A program made the position numbers and the translations under genes. DNA of 64,000 bases, taken from IMG/VR virus record IMGVR_UViG_3300044530_000636. The stretch is one strand, 5' to 3'. A model generated the notes under the pieces. It saw nothing but the letters and a program-made list of their open reading frames with translations, was not told the origin of the DNA and ran no database searches. Within the stretch, counting starts at the first letter, position 1. Each line of letters begins with the position of its first letter. Shown piece by piece: positions 7,662 to 35,124 of the stretch. This DNA is from an uncultured virus (IMG/VR IMGVR_UViG_3300044530_000636). Lineage: Duplodnaviria; Heunggongvirae; Uroviricota; Caudoviricetes.

Positions 7662-9033
7662 ATGAAATTCAAGAAAGAACTCCTACAAGAATTAGCATAT
7701 GAATGTTATGTTGATGGCTTTGAAGTCATTGAACAAAAAATGACTGGTCATACTAGATGGTCACTTAAATATAGTATGATCTTCAAGTTTGAGGATAAGT
7801 TATATAAAACTTCCTATAGCACAGGTGCTACTGAATATCAAGACGAAGACCCATATGAATATGAGCCTGACGAAATAGAATGTCCAGAGGTAATTCCTGT
7901 GGAAAAGACTATCATTGTATATGAGACAAAGAAATGAAACTCTTAAAGGTTAAAGAAGAATCATTCGACGTTACCTGGGAAAAGGGTAAGAAGTCTAAAC
8001 TATATGCTGTAGTTTATAGCCCTTGGGGTAGTCATAAGGTTGTTATCGCAGTGTTTGATAATACTTATTGGGCGGAATTCTTTGTAAATTCCAGCGCCAT
8101 TAAACACCAACTATCGGTAATGGAAGTAAAACGATGAGCGACGAAGGCAAAGGGTTTTTGATTTTTATTGGATGTTTTCTTATTGCTGCGATCGCAATTG
8201 CGGCATCAACATCATATTCCAACTATCTGTTTACGATGAGACAGAAGGATTGTATCTCTGCTGGTTACGAGTGGGTGCATCTGCCTAACTTTACAGAAAT
8301 GGAATGTAGGAAGGTTACAAAATGAAAATGATATACAAATATCCGCTGGGCGTAGATATCCATCACAACGCCATTTATGAGATTGAAATGCCGAGGGGCG
8401 CAAAGATCCTCGATATTCAGAATCAGGGCGGAATGCCTATGATCTGGGCGATTGTTAATCCTAAGAAAGAGAAGCGTAAGTATGTATTCCATGTATTTGG
8501 TACTGGCTTCGAGATGGTAGACTACGATAAGAAGCATTATGAATATGTTAAGACAGTCCAGACTGGACATCTTACTCAGCTGGTCTGGCATATCTTTGAG
8601 GTGCACGAATAATGACGCAAGAGAAACAGTGGTTTGAAGAGGCGCAACGAGCGGCGCATCTCGACGATACCTATCTCCGTAGTATTGATTATCTCCGTGA
8701 TAAGCTGGATGATATAGTCAGTAGAAATAGAACATATGAGCAGGTAGCAATATCAGTTGATATGGCGAAGCTGCTGCTCGACGCTCTGGAGAAATACTAA
8801 TGACACCGAAAGCTGAAAGTCTAATGGTCGGCAGCTTATTATTTGGATTGATTGTGTTCATTGGAATTGCTATCTATCTCGATAGTGGTCGTCAAGAACA
8901 GGTAAGTCAAGAGTCTATTCGCTGCGCAGAGGCTGGTGGCGTCTATCTCGATAGAACTTATTCCTACGGTAAGAATAACACGGGTCATCTATATACCTGC
9001 GTTGACAAGAAAATGGTAATTCAAGAGTTCTAA
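7662..9033 (+). other. Run of small early hypothetical CDS (7662-7937, 7934-8137, 8134-8325, 8322-8612, 8612-8800, 8800-9033)
   Basis: ATGA/TAATG overlaps; two have a single TM helix. Confidence 0.6.
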
Positions 9034-9039
9034 TAAATA
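9032..9039 (+). promoter_or_regulatory. T4-type late promoter
   Basis: AATAAATA in intergenic gap. Confidence 0.55.
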
Positions 9040-9074
9040 CACCATAATTGTTCTGCCAATACAAGGAGATTAAA

Positions 9075-9425
9075 ATGGCTGAGAAATATTATAGAATTCC
9101 TGTTGCAAAGGGTCTTATTAAGCTATCTGCAATTGAATATATTACGCCAGTCGTAACTTATAGCGAAAACTCTTATGGATTCCGTATCATTTATACCAAT
9201 TACACTTCTGTTCCGTTGAATCCTAAGAATCCATTGTCTAACAATTTCACTAATACAGAGAACACTGGTGGAATCAGAGTAATTCCAGATTCGCAGCTTG
9301 CAGACGGTTACAATTGTTCATTGTCTGGCTCTGATAAAGCAAAGCTAGAAGAATACAGAAACGATCTCATCAATGTTCTTACTGAGAATGGTGTCAATCT
9401 AATTGACAATTTTCCAAACGAATAA
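9075..9425 (+). CDS. Hypothetical protein, probably late
   Basis: AAGGAG RBS; lies between late promoter and terminator. Confidence 0.6.
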   Translation: MAEKYYRIPVAKGLIKLSAIEYITPVVTYSENSYGFRIIYTNYTSVPLNPKNPLSNNFTNTENTGGIRVIPDSQLADGYNCSLSGSDKAKLEEYRNDLINVLTENGVNLIDNFPNE

Positions 9426-9428
9426 TTA

Positions 9429-9450
9429 GAGGGGATTCATTCCCCTCTTT
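9429..9450 (+). terminator. Intrinsic terminator
   Basis: GAGGGGA-TTCAT-TCCCCTC-TTT. Confidence 0.7.
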
Positions 9451-9464
9451 TCCTATAGGATGAT

Positions 9465-10064
9465 ATGATGAAATATAGTTTTTTGATTACGACTACAGGA
9501 GATAAAATACGTATATTCGACGACGTATTCGATCCTCAGAAAGTCTATTTCATACACAAATTCCTCACCCAATCGTATTTCCAATTCCGTTCATCCTCTA
9601 CGACTCTTCAAGAGCATAGTGCATACATATATCCCTCTTCGTCTTTTAGTAAAGAGGATATCGTCAATCTGTCTTTCTTCGAGGGACAGAATATTATGCA
9701 TCTATTAGACGAGACTCTGACAGCCAGAGTATTAACTCGATGCTGGTGTAATGCTATTCTGGAAGGCTCGAAGTATTTCTGGCATGTCGACGCTGGAGCT
9801 CCGAGGGATACAGGCGACCAGACAATGCTCTATTACGCCAATAGTAATTGGGATAAGGATTGGCAAGGCGAGACTCTATTCTGTAATAAGAATGGCGAGT
9901 GCGAGATTGCAGTGGCAGCGAAGCCAGGAAGAATAGTAATATTTGATTCTGGCCTAATGCATAAGCCAGTTCCTATTTCCTCTATTGCTACAACGCCCAG
10001 ATATTCTATTGTATTTCAGTTTATGAAACAAGGCGAGAATTTATTACCATGCCCGCTAGAATAA
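9465..10064 (+). CDS. 2OG-Fe(II) oxygenase (prolyl-hydroxylase-like)
   Basis: HVD...W..DWQGET...H...R.S. Confidence 0.8.
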   Translation: MMKYSFLITTTGDKIRIFDDVFDPQKVYFIHKFLTQSYFQFRSSSTTLQEHSAYIYPSSSFSKEDIVNLSFFEGQNIMHLLDETLTARVLTRCWCNAILEGSKYFWHVDAGAPRDTGDQTMLYYANSNWDKDWQGETLFCNKNGECEIAVAAKPGRIVIFDSGLMHKPVPISSIATTPRYSIVFQFMKQGENLLPCPLE

Positions 10065-10276
10065 CCAAGCAATCACCAATATCTGACCAGTGGCATACCC
10101 TACTGATTGACCAATACGAACAGGACGAGTTTGAGCGCCGCTATCTGGCCTGGACTCACGGTAAACTTTATATTGAAGATGCATTCCCTGACCTATCAGC
10201 GGGACAGCGAGAGTTTATTAAGACTGGAATTACTAGTGAAGAGTGGAAGAAATATATTGGAGATGATGATGCCTAG
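10049..10276 (+). CDS. Hypothetical protein
   Basis: IEDAFPDLS..QREFIKTGIT.EEW motif typical of small phage ORFs. Confidence 0.6.
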   Translation: MPARITKQSPISDQWHTLLIDQYEQDEFERRYLAWTHGKLYIEDAFPDLSAGQREFIKTGITSEEWKKYIGDDDA

Positions 10277-10358
10277 ATTATTAGGAATGATGATTGGCCT
10301 AGTATATTGGCTATTTGTAATTACTATTGTTGATGCATTAATTAAGACGCTTAACAGC

Positions 10359-10466
10359 TGACCTAGACAACGACCAATGGGCTGACCTACACCCTGACCA
10401 ACCCGTTGACCAACTGAATGACCTACGCTGTGACCTACACGTTGACCTACTAGGCGACCAACGCCG
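10359..10466 (+). repeat. Iteron-like array: 9 x 12 bp, YGACCWA + variable tail
   Basis: YGACC starts at 10359, 10371, 10383, 10395, 10407, 10419, 10431, 10443, 10455. Confidence 0.95.
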
Positions 10467-10731
10467 CCACCCGAGCCACTACGAAGCGCTTATGACCGCC
10501 AATATGCCAGGAATAATCCTCGGTAGGCGTCTCCGGCAATTTCCAATCGTAAATAGTGGCTACATTGCCGTCGGCAAACCTAATAATCCATTCGGAGTTT
10601 ACCTTCCCGTCGCCAGAGCCGCTTAGTGGCTGACCAAACACTTCAACAAGGCGAGCGTAGGTAGTATTGACTTCGCCAAGGAAGCCAGTCATATTAGAAT
10701 CACGGTAGTTATTGGTGACACGGAACTTCAT
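10450..10731 (-). CDS. Hypothetical protein flanked by the 12-bp arrays
   Basis: 93 aa; AGGAGA RBS is part of the second array. Confidence 0.65.
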   Translation of the reverse strand: MKFRVTNNYRDSNMTGFLGEVNTTYARLVEVFGQPLSGSGDGKVNSEWIIRFADGNVATIYDWKLPETPTEDYSWHIGGHKRFVVARVAALVA

Positions 10732-10778
10732 GACCTATCTCCTGACCTATGAGTTGACCTACTGAATGACCTAGAACT
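10731..10778 (+). repeat. Second array: 4 x 12 bp TGACCTA
   Basis: Starts at 10731, 10743, 10755, 10767. Confidence 0.95.
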
Positions 10779-11492
10779 CAGCTACAAAGCGCCCATCTTT
10801 TATCGAAACGTAGACTCGACCAGTTCCAGGCTCGCCGTCAATATCGTCGTAGCCGATAGTAAACACAGCTTGGCCGTATCTATTCATATGTTTATAATCA
10901 GCGAATGTAATATCATCGCTACTATAGCCTGAATGCTCTAGTAAGTCAACAATATCCTGTAATTCCCATTCAGATAGATTATATTTCATTGATAATCCTC
11001 GCATAAATCGAGTAATTTATCGGCGTATTCCTGATTATAAGGATTGCCACGACGAATTAATTCCGCCTCGCATTCTAGCGCCTCTTTGGCTTTAGCTGCA
11101 CCGGAATAACCCCAATTCCAATAGGCCAGATATACTAACTGGTCGTCGGAGAATTCGTCTAAATTAACCTGTTTATTATCATATAAATCGGCTAATTCGT
11201 TTGTGCGAATAACCCATTCTCTATTGATATTATCCATAGTAATTCTCCTATTATATTAGAATTAGGCCAATTTGTTTAATTCAAACAATTGACCGCCATA
11301 CATATCCTCGGAATGGACTATATTAATTAAACCGCCGTCAATTACAATAGTAAAATCGCCGTAGTAACCGATAAGCGGATTTTTAGTTTCGCAGCCCGCA
11401 AAGGCGTCCCAGTCCATTTTATCAAAAGGCTTAAACGTAGTCTGAGCCATAACGGAGAACAGCTCAGTTTTAGTCGGGTAGGAATAGGTCAT
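10771..11492 (-). other. Leftward early operon: CDS 10771-10989, 10986-11237, 11262-11492
   Basis: RBSs present; leftward promoter at ~11524-11551. Confidence 0.6.
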
Positions 11493-11556
11493 TTCAGTTT
11501 CCTTCATTTCAGCTTATATTCTTATATTACCTCAATCCTCGAAAAACGCAAGCGCT

Positions 11557-11594
11557 AACTGAGCCATAACTCCATTTTTTTTAAAATAATTTTG
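11557..11594 (-). repeat. Left arm of imperfect ~38-bp inverted repeat (partner 12952-12990)
   Basis: Reverse complement CAAAATTATTTTAAAAAAAATGGAGTTATGGCTCAGTT. Confidence 0.8.
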
Positions 11595-11628
11595 ATAGTC
11601 AACTTGTCTCCTACACTCCAGTCGCCGC

Positions 11629-11656
11629 TTGTCATTTTCCCGGAATAGGGTAGAAT
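11629..11656 (+). promoter_or_regulatory. Early promoter
   Basis: TTGTCA-16-TAGAAT, GG before the -10. Confidence 0.7.
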
Positions 11657-11679
11657 GATAATATAAGAGGAGAAACGAA

Positions 11680-12452
11680 ATGGAAAAGCGAGTTACTATA
11701 GAGAAATACGGCGAATATTACCGTTTAATTGCCGCTTTATATGATAATGATTATTATCCGGTAAGGGTAGAGGAAATAGTAGAGAGTAAATCAATTAAAG
11801 AGGCGAAACGGGTATTATTCGAATTACTCCCGGATTGGAAGAATATTAAGATTGAGGGGGATTAAAATGATATTAACGCCCAAACAAATAGAATGGATTA
11901 ATAACGAAAAGCGTCATTATACTAGATTAGTTGAAGCAAAAGAAAAGAGTAAAACATATGCCGGAATAGGATATGATAGAACTCAATTACAATTGCTCCA
12001 ATTGATTATTGACCTCCATAATATAGAAATGAATAAGGATAAGCCTAAATGAAACTACTATTAAATATCGCCTCCCGTCTAATTCTATCATTCGGCTCTA
12101 TATTACTAGCAATAGGCGTATTAGTATTCGGGCCAAAATGGTTTATTGATATACTAGGGGAATTGAGAAAGGAATGGTTTAAATGAAACCAATATGGGAA
12201 GCGGAATTAGATAATCGTTACGCCTGTAAGGTTACTAGGGTACACGAATACGCTGGCCTATTAACCGTAATTGATACTACTAATGGGAATAAACTATTAG
12301 AAGAGGAAGTTACTCTATCGTTTGCCGCTATATTCGGGGCTGATTACGCTGATATTATGGAATGGGAGAATAAGATATTAGATTACTTTGAACAAATAGA
12401 TTTGGCGAATGAAATCGTAGAGGAATTAAAACGAGAGGAGGGGAGTAATTAG
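11680..12452 (+). other. Small hypothetical CDS (11680-11865, 11867-12052, 12183-12452)
   Basis: RBSs downstream of promoter at 11629. Confidence 0.55.
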
Positions 12453-12474
12453 GGGAATATTTAGGGGGAATTTA
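12439..12474 (+). repeat. 3 x 12-bp AGGGG tandem repeat
   Basis: AGGGGAGTAATT / AGGGGAATATTT / AGGGGGAATTTA. Confidence 0.6.
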
Positions 12475-12599
12475 AATCCCGTTTTAGAAATGTAATCGTT
12501 GTTTGGTCGGTGTGTTTATTAATTATTATAAAGCCCCAGTAATCACCAAGAGCCATAGTAATTAAACTATTAGCTCCGGTGAATTACTATTTTATTATA

Positions 12600-12776
12600 T
12601 TAAAGCCAGCCGCAATATTCCCGTCGGAGTTTATTATTTTCATTTAAATAAACGTAACCGACGACCGTATCATGGCCCATAAAACCCTCACTAACTATAT
12701 AAGCCACCACGTTATTAATATTATTATATTCATCATTAATATTTTCGGCTTTATTTAAACGGTGGAGTTTTAACAT
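12600..12776 (-). CDS. 58-aa hypothetical protein (not in ORF track)
   Basis: MLKLHRLNKAENIND...YCGWL; AAGGAG RBS; leftward promoter near 12800-12829. Confidence 0.5.
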   Translation of the reverse strand: MLKLHRLNKAENINDEYNNINNVVAYIVSEGFMGHDTVVGYVYLNENNKLRREYCGWL

Positions 12777-12951
12777 TTTGCTCTCCTTATTTCTATTATA
12801 ATATTACTACAATCCAATAATAAAGCAAGCTAAGACTGTGCTGTAGGGCGCAGTTTTATTTTTGCTCGTATGGTCGAGTCGTCGCTTGACATTTTGGCTG
12901 GGATCAGGTATAGTAATAGGGAAGGCGGGAGGGTGGAGGCCACCACCAGCC

Positions 12952-12990
12952 CAAAATTATTTTCAAAAAAAGTGGAGTAATGGTCCAGTT
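12952..12990 (+). repeat. Right arm of imperfect inverted repeat
   Basis: CAAAATTATTTTCAAAAAAAGTGGAGTAATGGTCCAGTT. Confidence 0.8.
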
Positions 12991-13612
12991 TCCGCTTGTC
13001 ATATATCCAGAATACGGTATACTGAGAATATAAGGAGTTTTGAAAATGATCGTATTCGTCTGTGTCTCCAATGAAGGTAAAATGCGAGTGTTCGCCAATG
13101 AAACTCTGGCTTATAATTATGCCGAGTGCATGTATGAAGAGGGCGAATACGTAGAAGTAACAGAAATGGTAGTTGAGACAAAATAAGTGTTGACTATTTC
13201 GAGAATACTGGTATAATCATTACTGTGAGGATGATAAACATGTCTAATACTGAAATGCAGAATGTCATTGGTATGATGCTGGTGATTGTTGGTCTCTCTG
13301 TGTTCGTTGTTCTTACTCAAATCCTGGATGTGATCCAATGAGAATCGAAACATATGATCTCACAGTGCAATTCGACAATGGCACTATCACCTATACTAAT
13401 ATATCTCTTGTTGCAGTCAAGCGTTATTTGCTGTGGTTTAGGGACAATCACACAGACTACGTTGATGCAGTGTGGGCTAGACATGGTTCGTTAGTAACTG
13501 CTTGATCTGGCACGATAAACAAAAAAGTTGAGGATAGGTGTTGACAAATCCTCGAAATACGGTAGAATGGTAATACGGTCGGATGAGACCTCTTATATGA
13601 TGGAGAAGTGAA

Positions 13613-14143
13613 ATGACGAAGTTGACTCGTGCTGGTCTGGTCCATAGTGTGATGGATGCTAATGCTTCGCTCCCGATGGACGAAGTCTTGGTGAAGATTG
13701 TTGCTGCCGATGCTGTGTCTGGTATTCCTGGTAAGGTTTGTGATCTGAAGCGTGCGAAGGCTTATTACAATCTGGCTATCAAGAACGGTCTTGCGAATGG
13801 CGTTGGTGCCACGAAGAGTGTTCGTGCTCCCAAGGCGAAGGCTGCTCCGAAGGCTGCGAAGCCCAAGCTGATTAAGCCGAAGCTGGATATGTCTGGTATT
13901 AAGGATCGCAAGCCCATTACGGATAAGACTGCCGAGGAAATCGCAGACATTCGTAACAAGAACCTTGCTCGCCTGAAGGCTGTCGGTCGTAAGTATGCCA
14001 AGGGCCAAGCTGCCGATGGTGCTCGTGGTTGTATCCATACGGCCGAGGAAGCTCGTGCTGAAGTTGCCAATCTCGAGGCAGAACTCGATAGCTTCAAGGC
14101 TCCGAAGTTCCTGAATATGGCCGATGTGAAGGCATTGGTCTAA
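13613..14143 (+). CDS. Ala/Lys-rich basic early protein, possibly DNA-binding
   Basis: APKAKAAPKAAKPK; own promoter; strongly biased codons. Confidence 0.65.
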   Translation: MTKLTRAGLVHSVMDANASLPMDEVLVKIVAADAVSGIPGKVCDLKRAKAYYNLAIKNGLANGVGATKSVRAPKAKAAPKAAKPKLIKPKLDMSGIKDRKPITDKTAEEIADIRNKNLARLKAVGRKYAKGQAADGARGCIHTAEEARAEVANLEAELDSFKAPKFLNMADVKALV

Positions 14144-14180
14144 TCGAACTGAGTGCAGGCTCTTGATCCTGTGGCTTGGT

Positions 14181-14331
14181 TGGGTGGATATAGCACCAGA
14201 GGGTGGGTCTTAAGACTACGTACCTATATCCACCCATTCTATTCTAATTGCGACAAAAAGTCAATATTGCTGCCGTTTACTATTACGGATCGTTGTGTGT
14301 GCGCACCTCCAGGTTCTGATAGTAAACGGCA
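14181..14331. repeat. Two adjacent perfect 13-bp inverted repeats
   Basis: TGGGTGGATATAG(14181)/CTATATCCACCCA(14224); TGCCGTTTACTAT(14271)/ATAGTAAACGGCA(14319). Confidence 0.9.
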
Positions 14332-14402
14332 TATTTTTTGAAAATAAGTGTTGACATATCCTCCGAATGTGGTATACTGAGAATACGATAAGGAGATAAG
14401 TC

Positions 14403-14880
14403 ATGGAAGTATTCGCTGTTATCTGGTCGATGGAATATGAGGGCGAGCAGCTCTTGGGTGTGTTCTCTGATTATGTGAAGGCCCGAGAGTTTCAGCTTGC
14501 TGGTGGTGATGACGGTAACGTTCACATACGCAAGGTAGAACTTAACTGTATATACGAATTCGGTGGCTGCGGGGAGGAGATCTAATGTCTAACAAACCGC
14601 AGAAGATCATATCTGGTGACCTACACTATGTGCGACGTCTGACCCGTGAGTGGGTTCATGCTGGATATTCTATTGTCAAGACCAAGCAATGGTCCGACGG
14701 GAAGTACACTGTGGTATTGGAGAAGCGCTAATGACCGAAGAAACCATTGAACGTATCGCCGACCAAGAAATGGATCGATTCGACTACCAGCTGCTCAATG
14801 GCATCATTGACCAGGCGACCTATGACCAAGAGGTGCGTGACCTAGAACTGTGGTGTAGGGAGATGTATCGTCGTGGCTGA
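14403..14880 (+). other. Small early CDS (14403-14585, a short ORF, 14731-14880)
   Basis: AAGGAG RBS after promoter at 14351; TAATG couplings. Confidence 0.5.
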
Positions 14881-24790: not shown

Positions 24791-25352
24791 TAATGTCTTT
24801 CTTTATCCTGATGAGATTGTTAAGTGGGCGAACACTTTAAAATTTTTTCAGAATGATACTCAGAAATTTAATGATGAAAGAAGAACATATTGGAAAGGTA
24901 AAAGAACATACCCTTTACACAAAACTTCTTTAGAAAATAAAGAAAAAACTGATCTTCTGGTACATGACATTTTTAATGGTTGTTTCTTAGGAGCATATGA
25001 TAAATTCTCATATAATTACAATTGGGAAGGGACTTTTTACTTCCATAGATTAGATAAAGATTGTATTTTTGAGAATTCTTGGATACACACAGACGCTAGA
25101 TGTATATATGCGGGAGTGGTATATCTTAATAAAAATCCTCCTTTGAATAGCGGAACGATGATATTTAAAGACGATAATAAAGTAGAGTATATTGAAAACA
25201 TCTATAATAGATTAGTCTTGTATAAATCTAAATTTAATCATAGTGCTATGTGTGGTTTCGGAGAAAATGAAAATTCAAGATTGACTTTTACTGCGTTTTT
25301 TAATAAAATTGATATGACGGTCAAAAGCGACGACGTGTTAATGCTGCCGTAG
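24765..25352 (+). CDS. 2OG-Fe(II) oxygenase-like (DUF6445-like)
   Basis: VIDN, WIHTD, AGVVYL, NRLVLY..H, SRLT. Confidence 0.7.
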   Translation: MLKDIYVIDNVFLYPDEIVKWANTLKFFQNDTQKFNDERRTYWKGKRTYPLHKTSLENKEKTDLLVHDIFNGCFLGAYDKFSYNYNWEGTFYFHRLDKDCIFENSWIHTDARCIYAGVVYLNKNPPLNSGTMIFKDDNKVEYIENIYNRLVLYKSKFNHSAMCGFGENENSRLTFTAFFNKIDMTVKSDDVLMLP

Positions 25353-25418
25353 CTCAGTTGGTAGAGCAGTTGATTAGTAATCATCAGGTCGGGAGTTCGA
25401 ATCTCTCCGGCAGCACCA
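25343..25418 (+). tRNA. tRNA-Thr(AGT)
   Basis: Full cloverleaf GCTGCCG/CGGCAGC, anticodon loop TT-AGT-AA (25376-25378), TTCGAAT, encoded CCA. Confidence 0.9.
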
Positions 25419-30130: not shown

Positions 30131-31310
30131 CAAAACTATTAGTATGGGGAACGTTTATTTTTATGGTTGGCATCTTTGTTAGCTATAATGATAATTTCGT
30201 AAAAAAGTGTAATGATGCTGGTGGTATGTCAGCACTGACTCTTAGTAGTGCAGTTTGTTTGCACCCATCAGCAGTTATGAGGCTAGATAAGTAGCATGAA
30301 TGAATTGAAGGATCAAAATGCGATTGACGTTAACATGCTAATTAAGTATGTTATGTGGTCTAGAGATAAGGTTGCTGGTGGTGTTAGTAAAGAAAATGCA
30401 ATCCAGTCTTTGTCTAGACTAATAGACTATGATATTAACCTGATGAAATCTATATCTGGAGTTGACAATGAGCAGAACTAAAGAAAGTTTGATTGCTATT
30501 TTTTTCTTTGCGCTAGGGTTTATGGTTGTCCATAATATGGCCAAGGCGGAAGATTTAAAATGCTATCCTAATGCAGAGATGATGAAGATGATCGACGAGA
30601 AGGCGTTGGTTACTCTTTATAATGGCGAAAAGAATGGTAAGATTAACGAAGCAATGATGTCTAAGGATCGTCATCTGTATATCGTTGAATATGATAAGGC
30701 TTCGGATGGCAATGCGCTGAAGGCAAAGCAATATTGCGTTACCGGTATTCTAAACGATGTAACATTTAATGACTCAGCTATTGAGTTTCTCTCGAATCTA
30801 CTTGAAAAGTATAAAGGACAAAAGACATGAGTATTCTAGGACCAGATGGCGCTGTCGCCGCTAGTGGACTTCCAGTGGGAGGATTAAATAAAAAGAATCC
30901 AATCGTTGATTTGCGAATGGTTGTATTTCAGAAGATGATGGTTCACCCACAGACCAAGGAAATGGTAATGGTTCCTATGCAGGATATCCAGTATCAGCGT
31001 CAAGGTTCTGATGAGTGGTTTTCAATAAACGGTGTTCAGTTGGAAAATCATGAACCTAATATAGAAGGTGGTGTAGGAGAGTAACGTGTCAGATAGATGG
31101 TCAGTTATCGGTCAAGTTTATAACGAAGAAACCGATCAATTATCTCAGTATATTATACAGAAAACAGGTATTGAACCGAAATACTTTGCTATGTATTCTA
31201 CCATGGCCGCATTCATCAGGCATGCTGGTATCGACGAAGCTCGTCCAGTAGCCTTTCGAAATGGTCATTATATCGGGACTCTAGATGATATAAAAAGGAT
31301 CTTAGGATGA
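30127..31310 (+). other. Small CDS (30127-30294 TM, 30296-30481, 30468-30830 secreted, 30827-31084, 31086-31310)
   Basis: Overlapping start/stop codons. Confidence 0.5.
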
Positions 31311-31480
31311 AGAAAGTATATCTATCAATTGCATTGGTGTTTCTTAGTTTGGGCGTCACTGGTTGTAATGAGTTGGCGACCATCGGTAAGTGCATTGTAC
31401 GGGACAGTTCTAATAGACCGTGCCACTAAAGAACCACCTGTTCCTTTAATAGAGGAATTTGAAAACGAGATACAAACTCA

Positions 31481-33046
31481 ATGAAAGTTAAAAGTATTAT
31501 GATTGTGGGCGGCGGATCATCTGGTTGGATGACTGCTGCCCTTTTGTCTAAAAATGTACCTAATGTTAACATTACTCTGATAGAGTCCACAAACGTTCCA
31601 ATTATTGGCGTTGGAGAATCAAGTTTAGTAAACATCAATAGGTTTATGAAACCATTTGGTATCCCAGAACAAATTTGGATGCCAAAGTGTGACGCTGTTT
31701 ATAAAACAACCATTAGGCTAACAGACTTTTATCAGAAGGGTAAAAGTTTTTATGATTTGACTAAGGGGATTACGCCTCCAGTCCCTATGAGAGATATTAA
31801 ATTATTCTATAACCTTTGTCATCAATATCCAGATTTATTCCAGCCTTTTGATTTTCCTGAATTTTTTGATGACAACTATCATATGGTTCTTCAAAACAAA
31901 TATACTGACAAACCAGGACCAATGAAATGGAATCCTAATATAGAAAAAGCGTATCATTTCGACGCTTATAAATTTGGATTGATGTTAAAAGACCTTGTCG
32001 CTATTCCGAACGGTGTTAAACATATCATCGATGACATTTATGCTATTCGGACTGATGACAATGGTATCACATGTTTAGAGACTAATGAGAATGGACCACT
32101 AACTGCAGATCTTTATATTGACTGTTCTGGGTTTAGATCTATTCTATTAGAACAAGGGTTGAAAATAGGATTAATAGATTTTTCAGAAGTTCTTGTAAAC
32201 GATAGAGCGATTGCGACCAATATTCCTTACGAATGTAAAAAAGAAGAAATGGTTAGTTTCACAGATTGTGTAGCGTTAGATAGTGGATGGGAGTGGAATA
32301 TTCCAATTTGGGATAGAATTGGTTCTGGCTATGTTTATAGCAGTAATCATACCAACGAAGAATCGGCTAAAGAGGAACTACGTGAAAGTATAAGAAAAAG
32401 ATATGGTTCAAGGGCGGACGGTTTAGAATTTCGTTCTATGAAATTCACTCCAGGAGTTAGAAAGGCTCCTTGGTATAAAAATGTTATTGCAGTTGGGCTT
32501 TCTTGTGCGTTCATTGGACCTCTGAGATCTACAGGGTTATTTTTGACTCAATCTATGATTGAGAATATTGCTCGTATCCTCCTTAATACGGATTGTCATG
32601 TAAAAAACTTTGATAGAGAATATTATAACCATTACGTAATTAAAGAAGCCTCAGAAGCCAAAGATTGGGTAACAGCGCAATATTTTCTCTCTCAAAGAGA
32701 AGATTCTCCTTATTGGAAGCATAGAACCAATGCTATGAATCATAACCATGAAGGGGATTATTTTAGTAAATTGTTTAGAGATCTTTATGATCAAAACCAA
32801 TCAACTGATCCAGAAAAATTGAAAATGAAAGAAGGCAACTTTAGTTATCATAGAGTTCTGGCGGCAGGTAATTACAGTTTTGTTACTAAGATGGATCATA
32901 ATATCGATATGAAACGAAACCCAAAATTAGCTAATGAGTTACATGATATCAAATATAGTTGGCTTAATCATCAAGCAGCGTTGAAACAATACATTAAAAC
33001 TCTTCCCAATCACTACGAATACCTTAGAGATAACATTTATAAATAA
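31481..33046 (+). CDS. Second flavin-dependent halogenase-family protein
   Basis: GGGSSG, AVYKTTI, WEWNIP, variant FIGPLRSTG. Confidence 0.85.
   Translation: MKVKSIMIVGGGSSGWMTAALLSKNVPNVNITLIESTNVPIIGVGESSLVNINRFMKPFGIPEQIWMPKCDAVYKTTIRLTDFYQKGKSFYDLTKGITPPVPMRDIKLFYNLCHQYPDLFQPFDFPEFFDDNYHMVLQNKYTDKPGPMKWNPNIEKAYHFDAYKFGLMLKDLVAIPNGVKHIIDDIYAIRTDDNGITCLETNENGPLTADLYIDCSGFRSILLEQGLKIGLIDFSEVLVNDRAIATNIPYECKKEEMVSFTDCVALDSGWEWNIPIWDRIGSGYVYSSNHTNEESAKEELRESIRKRYGSRADGLEFRSMKFTPGVRKAPWYKNVIAVGLSCAFIGPLRSTGLFLTQSMIENIARILLNTDCHVKNFDREYYNHYVIKEASEAKDWVTAQYFLSQREDSPYWKHRTNAMNHNHEGDYFSKLFRDLYDQNQSTDPEKLKMKEGNFSYHRVLAAGNYSFVTKMDHNIDMKRNPKLANELHDIKYSWLNHQAALKQYIKTLPNHYEYLRDNIYK
33038..33045 (+). 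promoter_or_regulatory. T4 consensus late promoter directly upstream of the tmRNA
   Basis: TATAAATA. Confidence 0.7.
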
Positions 33047-33051
33047 AGTTT

Positions 33052-33357
33052 GCCGAGGTCGTTGAGAGACGAAACATAGGTTTCTTGGACGTGGGGGCAG
33101 TTCCCACCGCCTCCACCATAGATACATCAGCCACCGAGGTCGTTTGTGTGGTCTTATATCGTGCTAGCCGATGGGATATGATAATCGGTGTATCTTTGAT
33201 GGGGGCGATTCAGGTTCGACAGGATTCAGTAAGGTCGTAAGGAGACCAAAGGCGAAACGTAGATGCAAACGATAATGATGCATCATTTGGAGCTTATGCA
33301 CTAGCTGCATGATCCATTGGGGTTCGCAAGTTGTCCCTAGAAACAGAAACAACTTGC
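33052..33357 (+). ncRNA. ssrA: Circularly permuted (two-piece) tmRNA; tag ANDNDASFGAYALAA
   Basis: Acceptor piece with T-arm GTGGG-GGCAGTT-CCCAC and CGCCTCC-A-CCA ending 33118; intervening 33119-33200; coding piece starts GGGGGCG at 33201 (G3:U70 pair); tag ORF 33265-33312; terminal hairpin 33326-33357. Outer ends approximate. Confidence 0.93.
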
Positions 33358-33391
33358 CTTTTCAATTCTGCTAGGTTATAATACTAATAAT

Positions 33392-33468
33392 GGTTCCGTA
33401 GCTCAGCTGGATAGAGCAGGGGATTTCTACTCCCAAGGTCGAGGGTTCGAATCCTTCCGGGACCGCCA
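33392..33468 (+). tRNA. tRNA-Arg(TCT)
   Basis: Cloverleaf GGTTCCG/CGGGACC, loop TT-TCT-AC, CCA; promoter TTGCCT(33354)-17-TATAAT(33377). Confidence 0.92.
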
Positions 33469-33486
33469 TTCTAACTGGAGTATATT

Positions 33487-33693
33487 ATGGCACGTCATTA
33501 TGGTCATGAAGATTATGGTATTGGCTATTATCTTACGCTAATCGCAATCTGGCTCGTTTTTGCCGTAGGTTGGGTGATGAACATTATCTCAATCTGGAAC
33601 ACAATGGATAATCCAATTACAGCTAAGTTCATTCTTCGCTGTATTGGTGTTTTCGTTGGCCCTATTGGCGCTATTCTTGGGTATCTTTCATGA
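33487..33693 (+). CDS. Small two-TM membrane protein
   Basis: GWVMNI...LRCIGVFVGPIGAILG. Confidence 0.6.
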   Translation: MARHYGHEDYGIGYYLTLIAIWLVFAVGWVMNIISIWNTMDNPITAKFILRCIGVFVGPIGAILGYLS

Positions 33694-34139
33694 TAAACGA
33701 TAGAGTTGCTAACATAGCAGGAGTTATACTTATGGTTGTTGGAGTTTTATTGGTTCTTGTATCTATGTTCTTCTCTACTCCAGTAAAAGCAGATTACGAT
33801 ATTATTGTTTCGAAACGTCATCAGACTATGACAGTTCTTCAAGATGGAGAGTTAATTGACCAATGGCCTGTCTCTACTGCCCGTAAAGGGTATTATACTC
33901 CTACGGGATCGTTTCATCCATATTCTTACCAGCTTATGCACTACAGTAAGAAATACGATAACGCTCCTATGCCAAATTCTATTTTCTTTTCTGGAGGATA
34001 TGCTATCCATGCTACTCCTCATGTTGGTGCTCTTGGGCGTCCTGCTTCTCACGGCTGCGTTCGTCTATCTCCCACTAATTCTGCTACTCTCTATAAAATG
34101 ACCAAAGGTGAATATACGACGATCACAATTAAGGACTAA
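33690..34139 (+). CDS. L,D-transpeptidase (YkuD family) with N-terminal signal/TM
   Basis: WPVSTA, TPTG, AIH...SHGCVRL catalytic His/Cys. Confidence 0.9.
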   Translation: MINDRVANIAGVILMVVGVLLVLVSMFFSTPVKADYDIIVSKRHQTMTVLQDGELIDQWPVSTARKGYYTPTGSFHPYSYQLMHYSKKYDNAPMPNSIFFSGGYAIHATPHVGALGRPASHGCVRLSPTNSATLYKMTKGEYTTITIKD

Positions 34140-34304
34140 CTCTATGGACACAATCAAAGAGAATTATTCGTATTCACATGCCAGCACTATACTCTGGTCT
34201 CTGCAGCAGGAACTGAATAGACATAAGGCTCGAAGATTTAATGATAACCATGTAGAAGAGTACCTTACTCGTCGGATCGCCGAACTGAAGGAACACGAAA
34301 AACA

Positions 34305-34523
34305 ATGCTTAAAAATTCAGGCTTCGTAGAGGAAGTAGAAAAGCTCTGTCGAGAAAAGAACATCGAATATATCGACGCCGTGGTTTTCTGGTGCGAAAAG
34401 AACAATCTGGAGATCGAGACGGCTGCATACTGGATTAAAAAGGATCCAGCTATGAGAGCTAAAATCCAGGCAGAAGCCGAGAATTTGAATATTCTTAAGC
34501 GTGGAGCACGCCTTCCGATATAA
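34305..34523 (+). CDS. gp33: Late transcription coactivator
   Basis: YIDAVV..CE.N.LEIE...K..I..EA..LN; synteny with 59-32. Confidence 0.85.
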   Translation: MLKNSGFVEEVEKLCREKNIEYIDAVVFWCEKNNLEIETAAYWIKKDPAMRAKIQAEAENLNILKRGARLPI

Positions 34524-34526
34524 ATA
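34519..34526 (+). promoter_or_regulatory. Late promoter
   Basis: TATAAATA. Confidence 0.7.
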
Positions 34527-34554
34527 CAGGGTTAAACCATTGTTGGAGGCTAAT

Positions 34555-35124
34555 ATGCACATTAAAACAATTGGTAAACCCTCGCATATATCTCTGCCTA
34601 TGGTGAAAAAAGCGGCGAATTTCTACGGAAAATATCTTATTGGAGGGGGTAAACTTTTTAATAATATAAAGTTGACACTTCAGTTCGAAAAAATGGATTC
34701 AGCCGAGGGCGATTACGCCTATTGCGACTGGACTGATGACCATCATCATACCAGAGAATTCGTAATAGGTATTGACAGAGCTCTTAATAAAAAAGAGACT
34801 TTGCTCGCCCTAGCCCATGAAATGGTCCACCTCAAGCAATACGCCAAAGGTGAAATGAAAGACATTTGGCGACCAACCAGAATGGTCAAGTGGCAAGGCG
34901 AGAGATATCTTCACGAACAAATGGATTATTGGGAACAGCCTTGGGAGATCGAGGCTTATGGACGTGAAAAAGGACTTTATTTCAAGTTCTTAAATTATTT
35001 AAGAGATGGTGAGCCAGAGTTAAAATGTCAGCCTTCGAAGCGTATCAAAATTATGTCGCCCTCAAAAACCACTTTACCAAAAGCGACTACGACTACATTA
35101 AATACAACGGCAAAACCGGATTAA
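34555..35124 (+). CDS. Zincin-like metallopeptidase
   Basis: LAHEMVHLKQ...PWEIEA. Confidence 0.75.
   Translation: MHIKTIGKPSHISLPMVKKAANFYGKYLIGGGKLFNNIKLTLQFEKMDSAEGDYAYCDWTDDHHHTREFVIGIDRALNKKETLLALAHEMVHLKQYAKGEMKDIWRPTRMVKWQGERYLHEQMDYWEQPWEIEAYGREKGLYFKFLNYLRDGEPELKCQPSKRIKIMSPSKTTLPKATTTTLNTTAKPD

Follow-up and report, generated by a model that had tools for sequence, protein, structure and literature searches.

Two-piece tmRNAs of the alphaproteobacteria (Rfam RF01849, Caulobacter type) share with the locus described here the gene order, the acceptor stem, the G3:U70 pair, the ANDN...AA tag and an AACAGAA-containing 3' element. The Caulobacter tmRNA is under cell-cycle control. Among phages, 402 with a tmRNA have been counted, with two-piece forms in 53 of 133 (PMC9004378). 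The phage two-piece class itself is already published; earlier cases were compiled in PMC4131195. The ssrA genes of Melnitz, a Methylophilales phage, and Mosig, a Pelagibacter phage, resemble the present one in being alpha-type, permuted, borne by a T4-like genome and located upstream of gp33 (PMC9004378), and these phages likewise have no SmpB. Our literature search, judged mostly from listings and covering few subscription papers, found no report of late control, loss of pseudoknot 1 (PK1) or spacer-borne HNH genes in a phage tmRNA, and no function for a full-length phage tmRNA. The loss of PK1, the late promoter and the spacer as a cargo site for HNH genes go further than the published class; PK1-less or HNH-bearing alleles may lie unremarked in published datasets (the Nawrocki supplement, Melnitz Table S1).

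The sequence analysed, called the window below, is a stretch of 64,000 nucleotides from an uncultured virus (IMGVR_UViG_3300044530_000636). The source record is linear, 146,587 bp long and 86% complete, and carries the T4-type genes gp23, gp55, gp45, gp33, gp59 and gp32. By capsid protein, the nearest isolates were Stenotrophomonas phage DLP6 (70.8%), Sinorhizobium phages phiN3/phiM12 (64.9%) and Melnitz (62.7%). An L,D-transpeptidase gene at 33690–34139 (+) had its best plasmid matches in Shinella, Ensifer, Rhizobium and Microvirga (43–54%), which points weakly to a Hyphomicrobiales host. Outside the window lie a DNA base hypermodification cluster (L557:2299–6503, −; Tet/JBP oxygenase, glutamine amidotransferase, amino acid:DNA transferase and P-loop kinase), a peptide deformylase (L557:7570–8064, −) and a RegA-type translational regulator (L558:17731–18129, −). 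The features of the tmRNA locus are the following.

33038–33045 (+): T4-type late promoter TATAAATA, predicted start about 33051
33049–33060 (+): helix 2 5' strand joining both pieces, from cofolding
33049–33118 (+): acceptor piece (3' part of the tmRNA), 5' end predicted at about 33049–33052
33091–33107 (+): T arm, loop GGCAGTT
33108–33118 (+): 3' strand of the acceptor stem, carrying U70, the discriminator A and an encoded CCA
33119–33200 (+): intervening sequence of 82 nt, no ORF, empty allele, from the fold, a covariation control and relatives
33134–33144 (+): second copy of an 11-mer (first copy 33053–33063), predicted to pair within a spacer hairpin
33201–33357 (+): coding piece, G1 at 33201, PK1 absent
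33260–33261 (+): equivalents of the frame-setting bases U85/A86, by comparison with the E. coli positions in PMC2481249
33265–33312 (+): tag reading frame ANDNDASFGAYALAA and stop
33317–33357 (+): 3' terminal hairpin, 33326–33333 paired with 33350–33357, a short T run after it, from folds across relatives
33354–33382 (+): sigma70-like promoter (10 of 12) for the tRNA-Arg unit, the best site in 31300–34600
33392–33468 (+): tRNA-Arg(TCT), conserved downstream neighbour
34305–34523 (+): gp33 late-transcription coactivator, a synteny anchor common to Melnitz and Mosig (PMC9004378)

A permuted tmRNA with the tag ANDNDASFGAYALAA was called by ARAGORN at 33026–33403, and the locus scored above the cut-off of both Rfam models (91.5 bits for RF04321 tmRNA_permuted, cut-off 47; 81.6 bits for RF01849 alpha_tmRNA, cut-off 50). 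These searches, which the initial annotation had proposed as a check, bear out its claim of a permuted two-piece tmRNA. Those of its motifs and coordinates that were checked agree with the present ones, among them the 82-nt spacer with the arms AGATACA (here at 33120–33126) and TGTATCT (33189–33195), the T-loop, G3:U70 and the cut before G1 at 33201. The acceptor piece comes first, then the spacer, then the coding piece. The acceptor domain has a 7-bp acceptor stem, G3:U70, the discriminator A, a CCA encoded at 33116–33118 and the T arm, and the coding piece has the resume signal U85/A86, the main frame signals of tmRNA (PMC2481249), and an open tag frame ending in hydrophobic residues. The T-loop departs from the bacterial one, which was GGCRGTA in 77 of 80 cases and GGCAGTT in none. 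At the 3' end a likely pseudoknot (33317–33322 with 33335–33340, the pairing judged by eye) accompanies the terminal hairpin, which was not called by the terminator scan. The window thus encodes a functional-looking alpha-type two-piece tmRNA. We consider it probable that the T4-like phage has here a streamlined tmRNA that works and would serve late trans-translation with the SmpB of the host.

Relatives were gathered at gp33 loci (the best 80 of 163) and with a T-arm pattern (at least 120 loci). In a separate search for the host, an exact T-arm pattern had no match in the genome collection; a looser 5' pattern gave at least 120 loci of its own, the 80 titled ones being mostly Hyphomicrobiales with some Planctomycetota and others, in a set biased by the pattern itself. 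A structure-based finder recovered the gene at 46 of the 80 gp33 loci, giving 26 distinct alleles (the close alleles), and at 102 of the 120 listed T-arm loci, giving 96 (the broader alleles); the alleles are related, and such counts are not independent. Because the finder required a paired acceptor stem, acceptor pairing cannot count as independent support; the finder made no use of the spacer-closing stem or of helix 2. Many of its misses correspond to contig edges, and variants (L130, L138–L143, L187 and L190) were found by ARAGORN or by inspection. The typical gene order in relatives is tmRNA, tRNA-Arg, gp33. In close relatives the acceptor stems vary by paired changes with G3:U70 kept, and the tags retain their AND...(A/V)A termini, the variation being synonymous. 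In some close relatives (L131 and L164) the roughly 6 kb before gp33 contained no tmRNA motif, and the gene therefore appears to be accessory. A Blastn search with the region including tRNA-Arg gave only tRNA matches among the best 40 of 853 records. Two-piece tmRNAs unannotated in their own records were seen in Mesorhizobium phage Cp1R7A-A1 and Erythrobacter phage L02 (L203 and L204). Phage-like alleles were also present in bacterial genome bins, possibly misbinned phage contigs (L506, with a late motif, and L547, with a 260-nt spacer).

The initial annotation had placed the gene under a T4 late promoter. The record encodes the late machinery gp55, gp45 and gp33 and holds 15 copies of TATAAATA, one of them before gp23. 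ATAAATA lies just upstream of 19 ORFs, about 12 of which look like virion genes. At 33038–33045, TATAAATA shares bases with the stop codon of the tryptophan-halogenase-like gene upstream; it is a TATA box of 8 bp lying about one turn before the predicted start, an arrangement that needs no −35 box. Since the T4 box begins at −13 (PMC2988020), the +1 position would be near 33051, which coincides with the start of the helix 2 5' strand. The best sigma70-type match before the window tmRNA reached only 7 of 12. A late motif was located 44–55 nt before the T stem in 25 of the 26 close alleles and in 70 of 94 broader alleles (two of the 96 had too little flank), against 235 of 29,992 background windows (0.8%). 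TATAAATA is probably a true late promoter. With a scoring that allows TATAAA to double as a −10 box, the close alleles comprised 17 with the late motif only (the window allele included), 8 with late and early motifs and 1 with an early motif, and the broader alleles 18 late, 52 both, 2 early and 22 neither. The late promoter, and the wider claim that the phage provides its own trans-translation late in infection, are retained as probable for this locus, where the T4-type motif is credible, a sigma70-type site is lacking and the RNA looks functional, with host SmpB needed; late-only control is not general, as 52 of the 94 broader alleles combine both types. The sampled bacterial genes have a TATATT-like −10 box at a place similar to that of the phage late motif.

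Melnitz also has a late motif, 48 nt before the T stem, and, unlike the window with its late motif alone, an overlapping sigma70-type promoter (11 of 12). Its ssrA was published as an early-promoter gene (PMC9004378), which can be reconciled with a late reading because Melnitz has both promoter types. Just downstream of the gene Melnitz has a glutamine riboswitch, where the window has tRNA-Arg. The candidate promoter of the latter (33354–33382) has similar sites in several relatives, as judged by eye, and sigma70-like sites in 31300–34600 occur at chance level. Glutamine aptamers were seen downstream of the tmRNA, outside the spacer, in L046 and L201, and a manA RNA motif lies near the Mosig tmRNA region (L202:7382–7589).

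No terminator was called beside the TATAAATA promoter, and transcription may run in from the upstream gene. The RNA could then be functional and made early or throughout infection, TATAAATA being secondary; this alternative concerns timing only and overlaps the others considered below. The overlap of the promoter with the upstream stop codon, the early description of Melnitz (PMC9004378) and the early-type promoter found beside the late one in the broader set all speak for it. Against it, 17 of the 26 close alleles, including that of the window, keep the late motif alone at a fixed spacing, whatever lies upstream, and we regard early read-through as unlikely.

The absence of smpB noted in the window extends to the whole 146,587-bp record at its 86% completeness, and SmpB was not found in 24 other records picked from tmRNA-type matches. 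The tmRNA had been grouped with an ArfA-like ORF and tRNAs into a ribosome-rescue kit, which is not supported. The best candidate for the ORF, at 756–869 (−), encodes a basic protein of 37 aa about 32 kb from the tmRNA. It had no match to the Pfam ArfA profile (PF03889) and no ArfA chain among its PDB matches, the only match being an SmpB tail at chance level (E 9.7); the ArfA motif KGKGSY was not found in the genome. In Atlas a cluster with 23% ArfA members came at rank 12 (score 0.91), after DUF7230 at rank 11, which makes a weak lead, and PHROG 20887 (function unknown) matched at E 2e-6. The record has 27 tRNAs, 25 of them outside the window and 24 in one distant cluster. Because its parts are scattered, a dedicated kit was not accepted. 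The tRNA cluster (L558, about 7780–14670) includes an HNH gene that has a late promoter of its own, and a DUF2828/DUF7788 protein is encoded near it (L558:5581–7002, −). The tRNA loci also include positions 25343–25418 of the window, and the anticodon of the tRNA-Thr is AGT.

A ClpP-family protease (E 7e-31), with apparent Ser, His and Asp motifs, is encoded outside the window at L559:9691–10266 (+). Together with the peptide deformylase of the same genome, the presence of ClpP in four close relatives and a recycling role proposed for Melnitz (PMC9004378), it would be compatible with another function, in which the tmRNA and the phage ClpP-like protease would degrade truncated, mostly host, proteins so that their amino acids are recycled, and the freeing of ribosomes would not be the main role. 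This we judge quite unlikely. The protease gene lies about 100 kb from the tmRNA, of 24 records searched for ClpP it was found in just 4 (and in 2 of the 6 whose completeness reaches 90%), and not in Melnitz or Mosig; moreover, we know of no selection of host over phage mRNA by trans-translation.

The main structural departure of the window tmRNA, overlooked in the initial annotation, is in the coding piece. Canonical alpha-type tmRNAs have PK1 between helix 2 and the resume codon. In the sampled bacterial genes G1 and the resume codon are 80–87 nt apart with PK1 between them, whereas in the window the distance is 64 nt, PK1 is absent and the alignments to both Rfam models have a gap at its position. 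The claim of absence rests on length and alignment because the pseudoknot finder is insensitive (33 of 68 bacterial alleles). The spacing was 62–67 nt in 23 of 24 close alleles and at most 70 nt in 19 of 84 broader viral alleles, four of the 19 having 43–48 nt with possibly mis-assigned resume codons. All 68 bacterial alleles had 80–87 nt and none was short. Among 401 alphaproteobacterial genomes, an even sample from the class of G021 (Methylocystis), the short pattern occurred in none, the long one in 313 (the unpublished G063 and G263 giving 2 of these) and neither in 88. The Caulobacter resume codon is at position 82 (PMC1168896), and Melnitz, unlike the window, keeps PK1 (82 nt). PK1 is typical and not universal, with exceptions in Oenococcus oeni and a Pavlova chloroplast (PMC1168896). 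In E. coli it has been described as required for tagging, and also as replaceable by hairpins, some of which retain no more than part of the activity (PMC3968760, PMC13692277).

Since a hairpin can replace PK1 in E. coli, helix 2 is a candidate substitute. In the cofold, 33049–33054 pairs with 33251–33256 and 33057–33060 with 33244–33247, and the outer segment stops 8 nt before the resume codon. In a comparison made without L197, whose promoter spacing differs, all 25 alleles paired better with their own partner than with the foreign mean (−12.1 vs −10.1 kcal/mol), a weaker contrast than that of the spacer-closing stem, and in only 4 of the 25 was the own partner best or tied. Compensatory changes across alleles were seen by eye. 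In place of PK1, it is probably the outer part of this helix that provides a stable structure. The missing PK1 could also mean that the RNA is a decoy, binding SmpB, tagging poorly and dampening trans-translation of the host, in the manner of the TLD-only form from phage DS6A, for which inhibition of endogenous tmRNA was demonstrated in E. coli (PMC11915505); SmpB titration has been suggested as well (PMC4131195). This is very unlikely, as the whole clade conserves the tag frame, the stop, the hydrophobic C-terminus and U85/A86, none of which a decoy would need.

We return to a working tmRNA, for which the following course is proposed. Late in infection, the host RNA polymerase with phage gp55 and gp33 would start near 33051, so that the 5' end of the acceptor piece would be made directly. 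Host RNase P would cut at 33200/33201, 3'-processing enzymes would trim to the CCA at 33118, and the stem-closed spacer would be removed without ligation, as in the known pathway (PMC11915505, PMC3968760, PMC3978253). The two pieces would be held together by the acceptor stem and helix 2. The host AlaRS would charge the tmRNA through G3:U70 and, with host SmpB and EF-Tu, it would enter stalled ribosomes and add a tag ending in ALAA, directing the products to proteolysis by Clp-type proteases. The likely benefit would be that ribosome recycling is kept up during late protein synthesis. The initial annotation had conjectured that host tmRNA lost to RNases or defence toxins is replaced.

The spacer of the window is closed by a 9-bp stem (33120–33128 with 33187–33195) and folds into two inner hairpins. 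Its interior matched identical copies only. The closing stem was more stable with its own ends than with foreign ones (−12.9 vs −6.1 kcal/mol; better in 25 of 26 alleles). Since the spacer would be cut out, its interior would be free to vary. Lengths were mostly 24–51 nt in the sampled bacteria and 4–266 nt in viruses, the 124 distinct spacers of at least 40 nt (bacterial ones included) fell into 88 clusters, and no known RNA family (ribozyme or riboswitch) was found inside the spacers of 40 loci. The initial annotation had also pointed to an 11-mer duplicated at 33053 and 33134. This duplication is real; repeats of this type arose in 16 of 2000 shuffles and in 35 of 458 genome windows of 320 nt. 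Among 90 distinct alleles whose spacers reach at least 40 nt, that of the window alone had 9 or more bases of its leader repeated inside the spacer. As it is not conserved, a functional role was rejected, and the repeat is treated as a local accident. Small ORFs occupy the tmRNA spacers of other phages (L014:3033–3233, +; L031:3037–3207, +; L183, L184, L007 and L040), and two of the ten tested encode DUF6356.

Relatives L154–L160, with gp33 at 88% identity, have a spacer of 520 nt that contains an HNH gene for 154 aa, and the closing stem is formed by the final codons of this gene. The HNH domain scored 21 bits, just under the cut-off of 21.4, and PHROG 655 "homing endonuclease" matched at E 7e-14; the spacer gene thus combines an HNH domain with present and absent alleles at one site, as expected of a homing endonuclease. 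Among the best 80 of 452 relatives of this protein in a profile search, the structure-based finder located 23 in a spacer, and inspection added five further lineages. A tree of 65 rows united 21 proteins encoded in spacers and one encoded adjacently in a single clade, whose support of 93/93 falls slightly short of the strict threshold; of the remaining 43, none had been assigned to a spacer. Of the 21 spacer HNH genes, 19 have a late motif within a hairpin that spans or adjoins the ribosome-binding site, an arrangement described for T4 I-TevI and SegB (PMC2988022). A search for a late promoter within a spacer returned 122 loci, one of them a tmRNA, and yields no frequency. In L237 (same contig as L211), an HNH gene of the spacer clade is located just upstream of a tmRNA whose spacer is of the ordinary, short kind and whose acceptor stem is altered. 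In L268 and L309, HNH genes outside the clade have a tmRNA-like call close upstream on the opposite strand, with non-canonical acceptor stems.

The acceptor stem was canonical in 2 of 22 HNH-linked alleles vs 19 of 25 empty ones (Fisher p 5e-6, or 3e-5 with three missed variants added, for lineages that are not independent). The acceptor/T-arm region also varies among bacteria. The contrast fits a target in the acceptor/T-arm DNA to which carriers are immune. The window carries an empty, canonical allele, and the HNH gene is present in 1 of the 26 close alleles. That the tmRNA gene owes its persistence chiefly to homing endonucleases, which would spread it among co-infecting phages while the phage gains little, is highly improbable, for in spite of the dedicated HNH clade in or beside it, its apparent absence from some close relatives and segments that look mosaic between alleles, the close alleles, nearly all empty of HNH, keep compensated stems, tag and promoter.

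The spacer of these tmRNAs is a hypervariable cargo site, which in relatives holds unrelated hairpins, small genes or an HNH gene. The spacer HNH genes share the late-promoter hairpin with the T4 homing endonucleases I-TevI/II/III and SegB and with Aeh1 MobE (PMC2988022). These putative homing endonuclease genes differ in lying in a spacer that would be excised without ligation, neither in an intron nor free-standing. As in genes fractured by split inteins (PMC2677866) and in tmRNA group I introns with LAGLIDADG genes (PMC11915505), the endonuclease is tolerated because the host product reassembles around it; in the phage tmRNA, tolerance would come from tRNA-type processing of a permuted RNA, with no splicing. 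In 79 phage sequences, endonuclease genes were reported only in group I introns in the available part of PMC11915505. As a tentative joint reading, a phage-restricted tmRNA lineage would have deleted PK1, would use instead an intermolecular helix whose 5' strand comes from the late-promoter start, and would still tag. Its spacer would act as an intron without splicing, removed by host processing; a dedicated HNH clade would home into it by cutting the conserved acceptor/T-arm DNA, carriers would escape through compensated acceptor-stem changes, and the canonical allele of the window would be an empty target.

The role of PK1 in trans-translation is still debated, as a purely structural element or a ribosome anchor, and a natural, widespread PK1-less tmRNA with a conserved tag, which brings its own compensatory variants, lends itself to testing this. 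Timing can be predicted from the promoter classes (late only, or late together with early). Gene finders miss phage tmRNAs, as exemplified by ARAGORN, which made no call on the HNH-bearing alleles. The spacer would be a way for selfish nucleases to inhabit an RNA gene without an intron.
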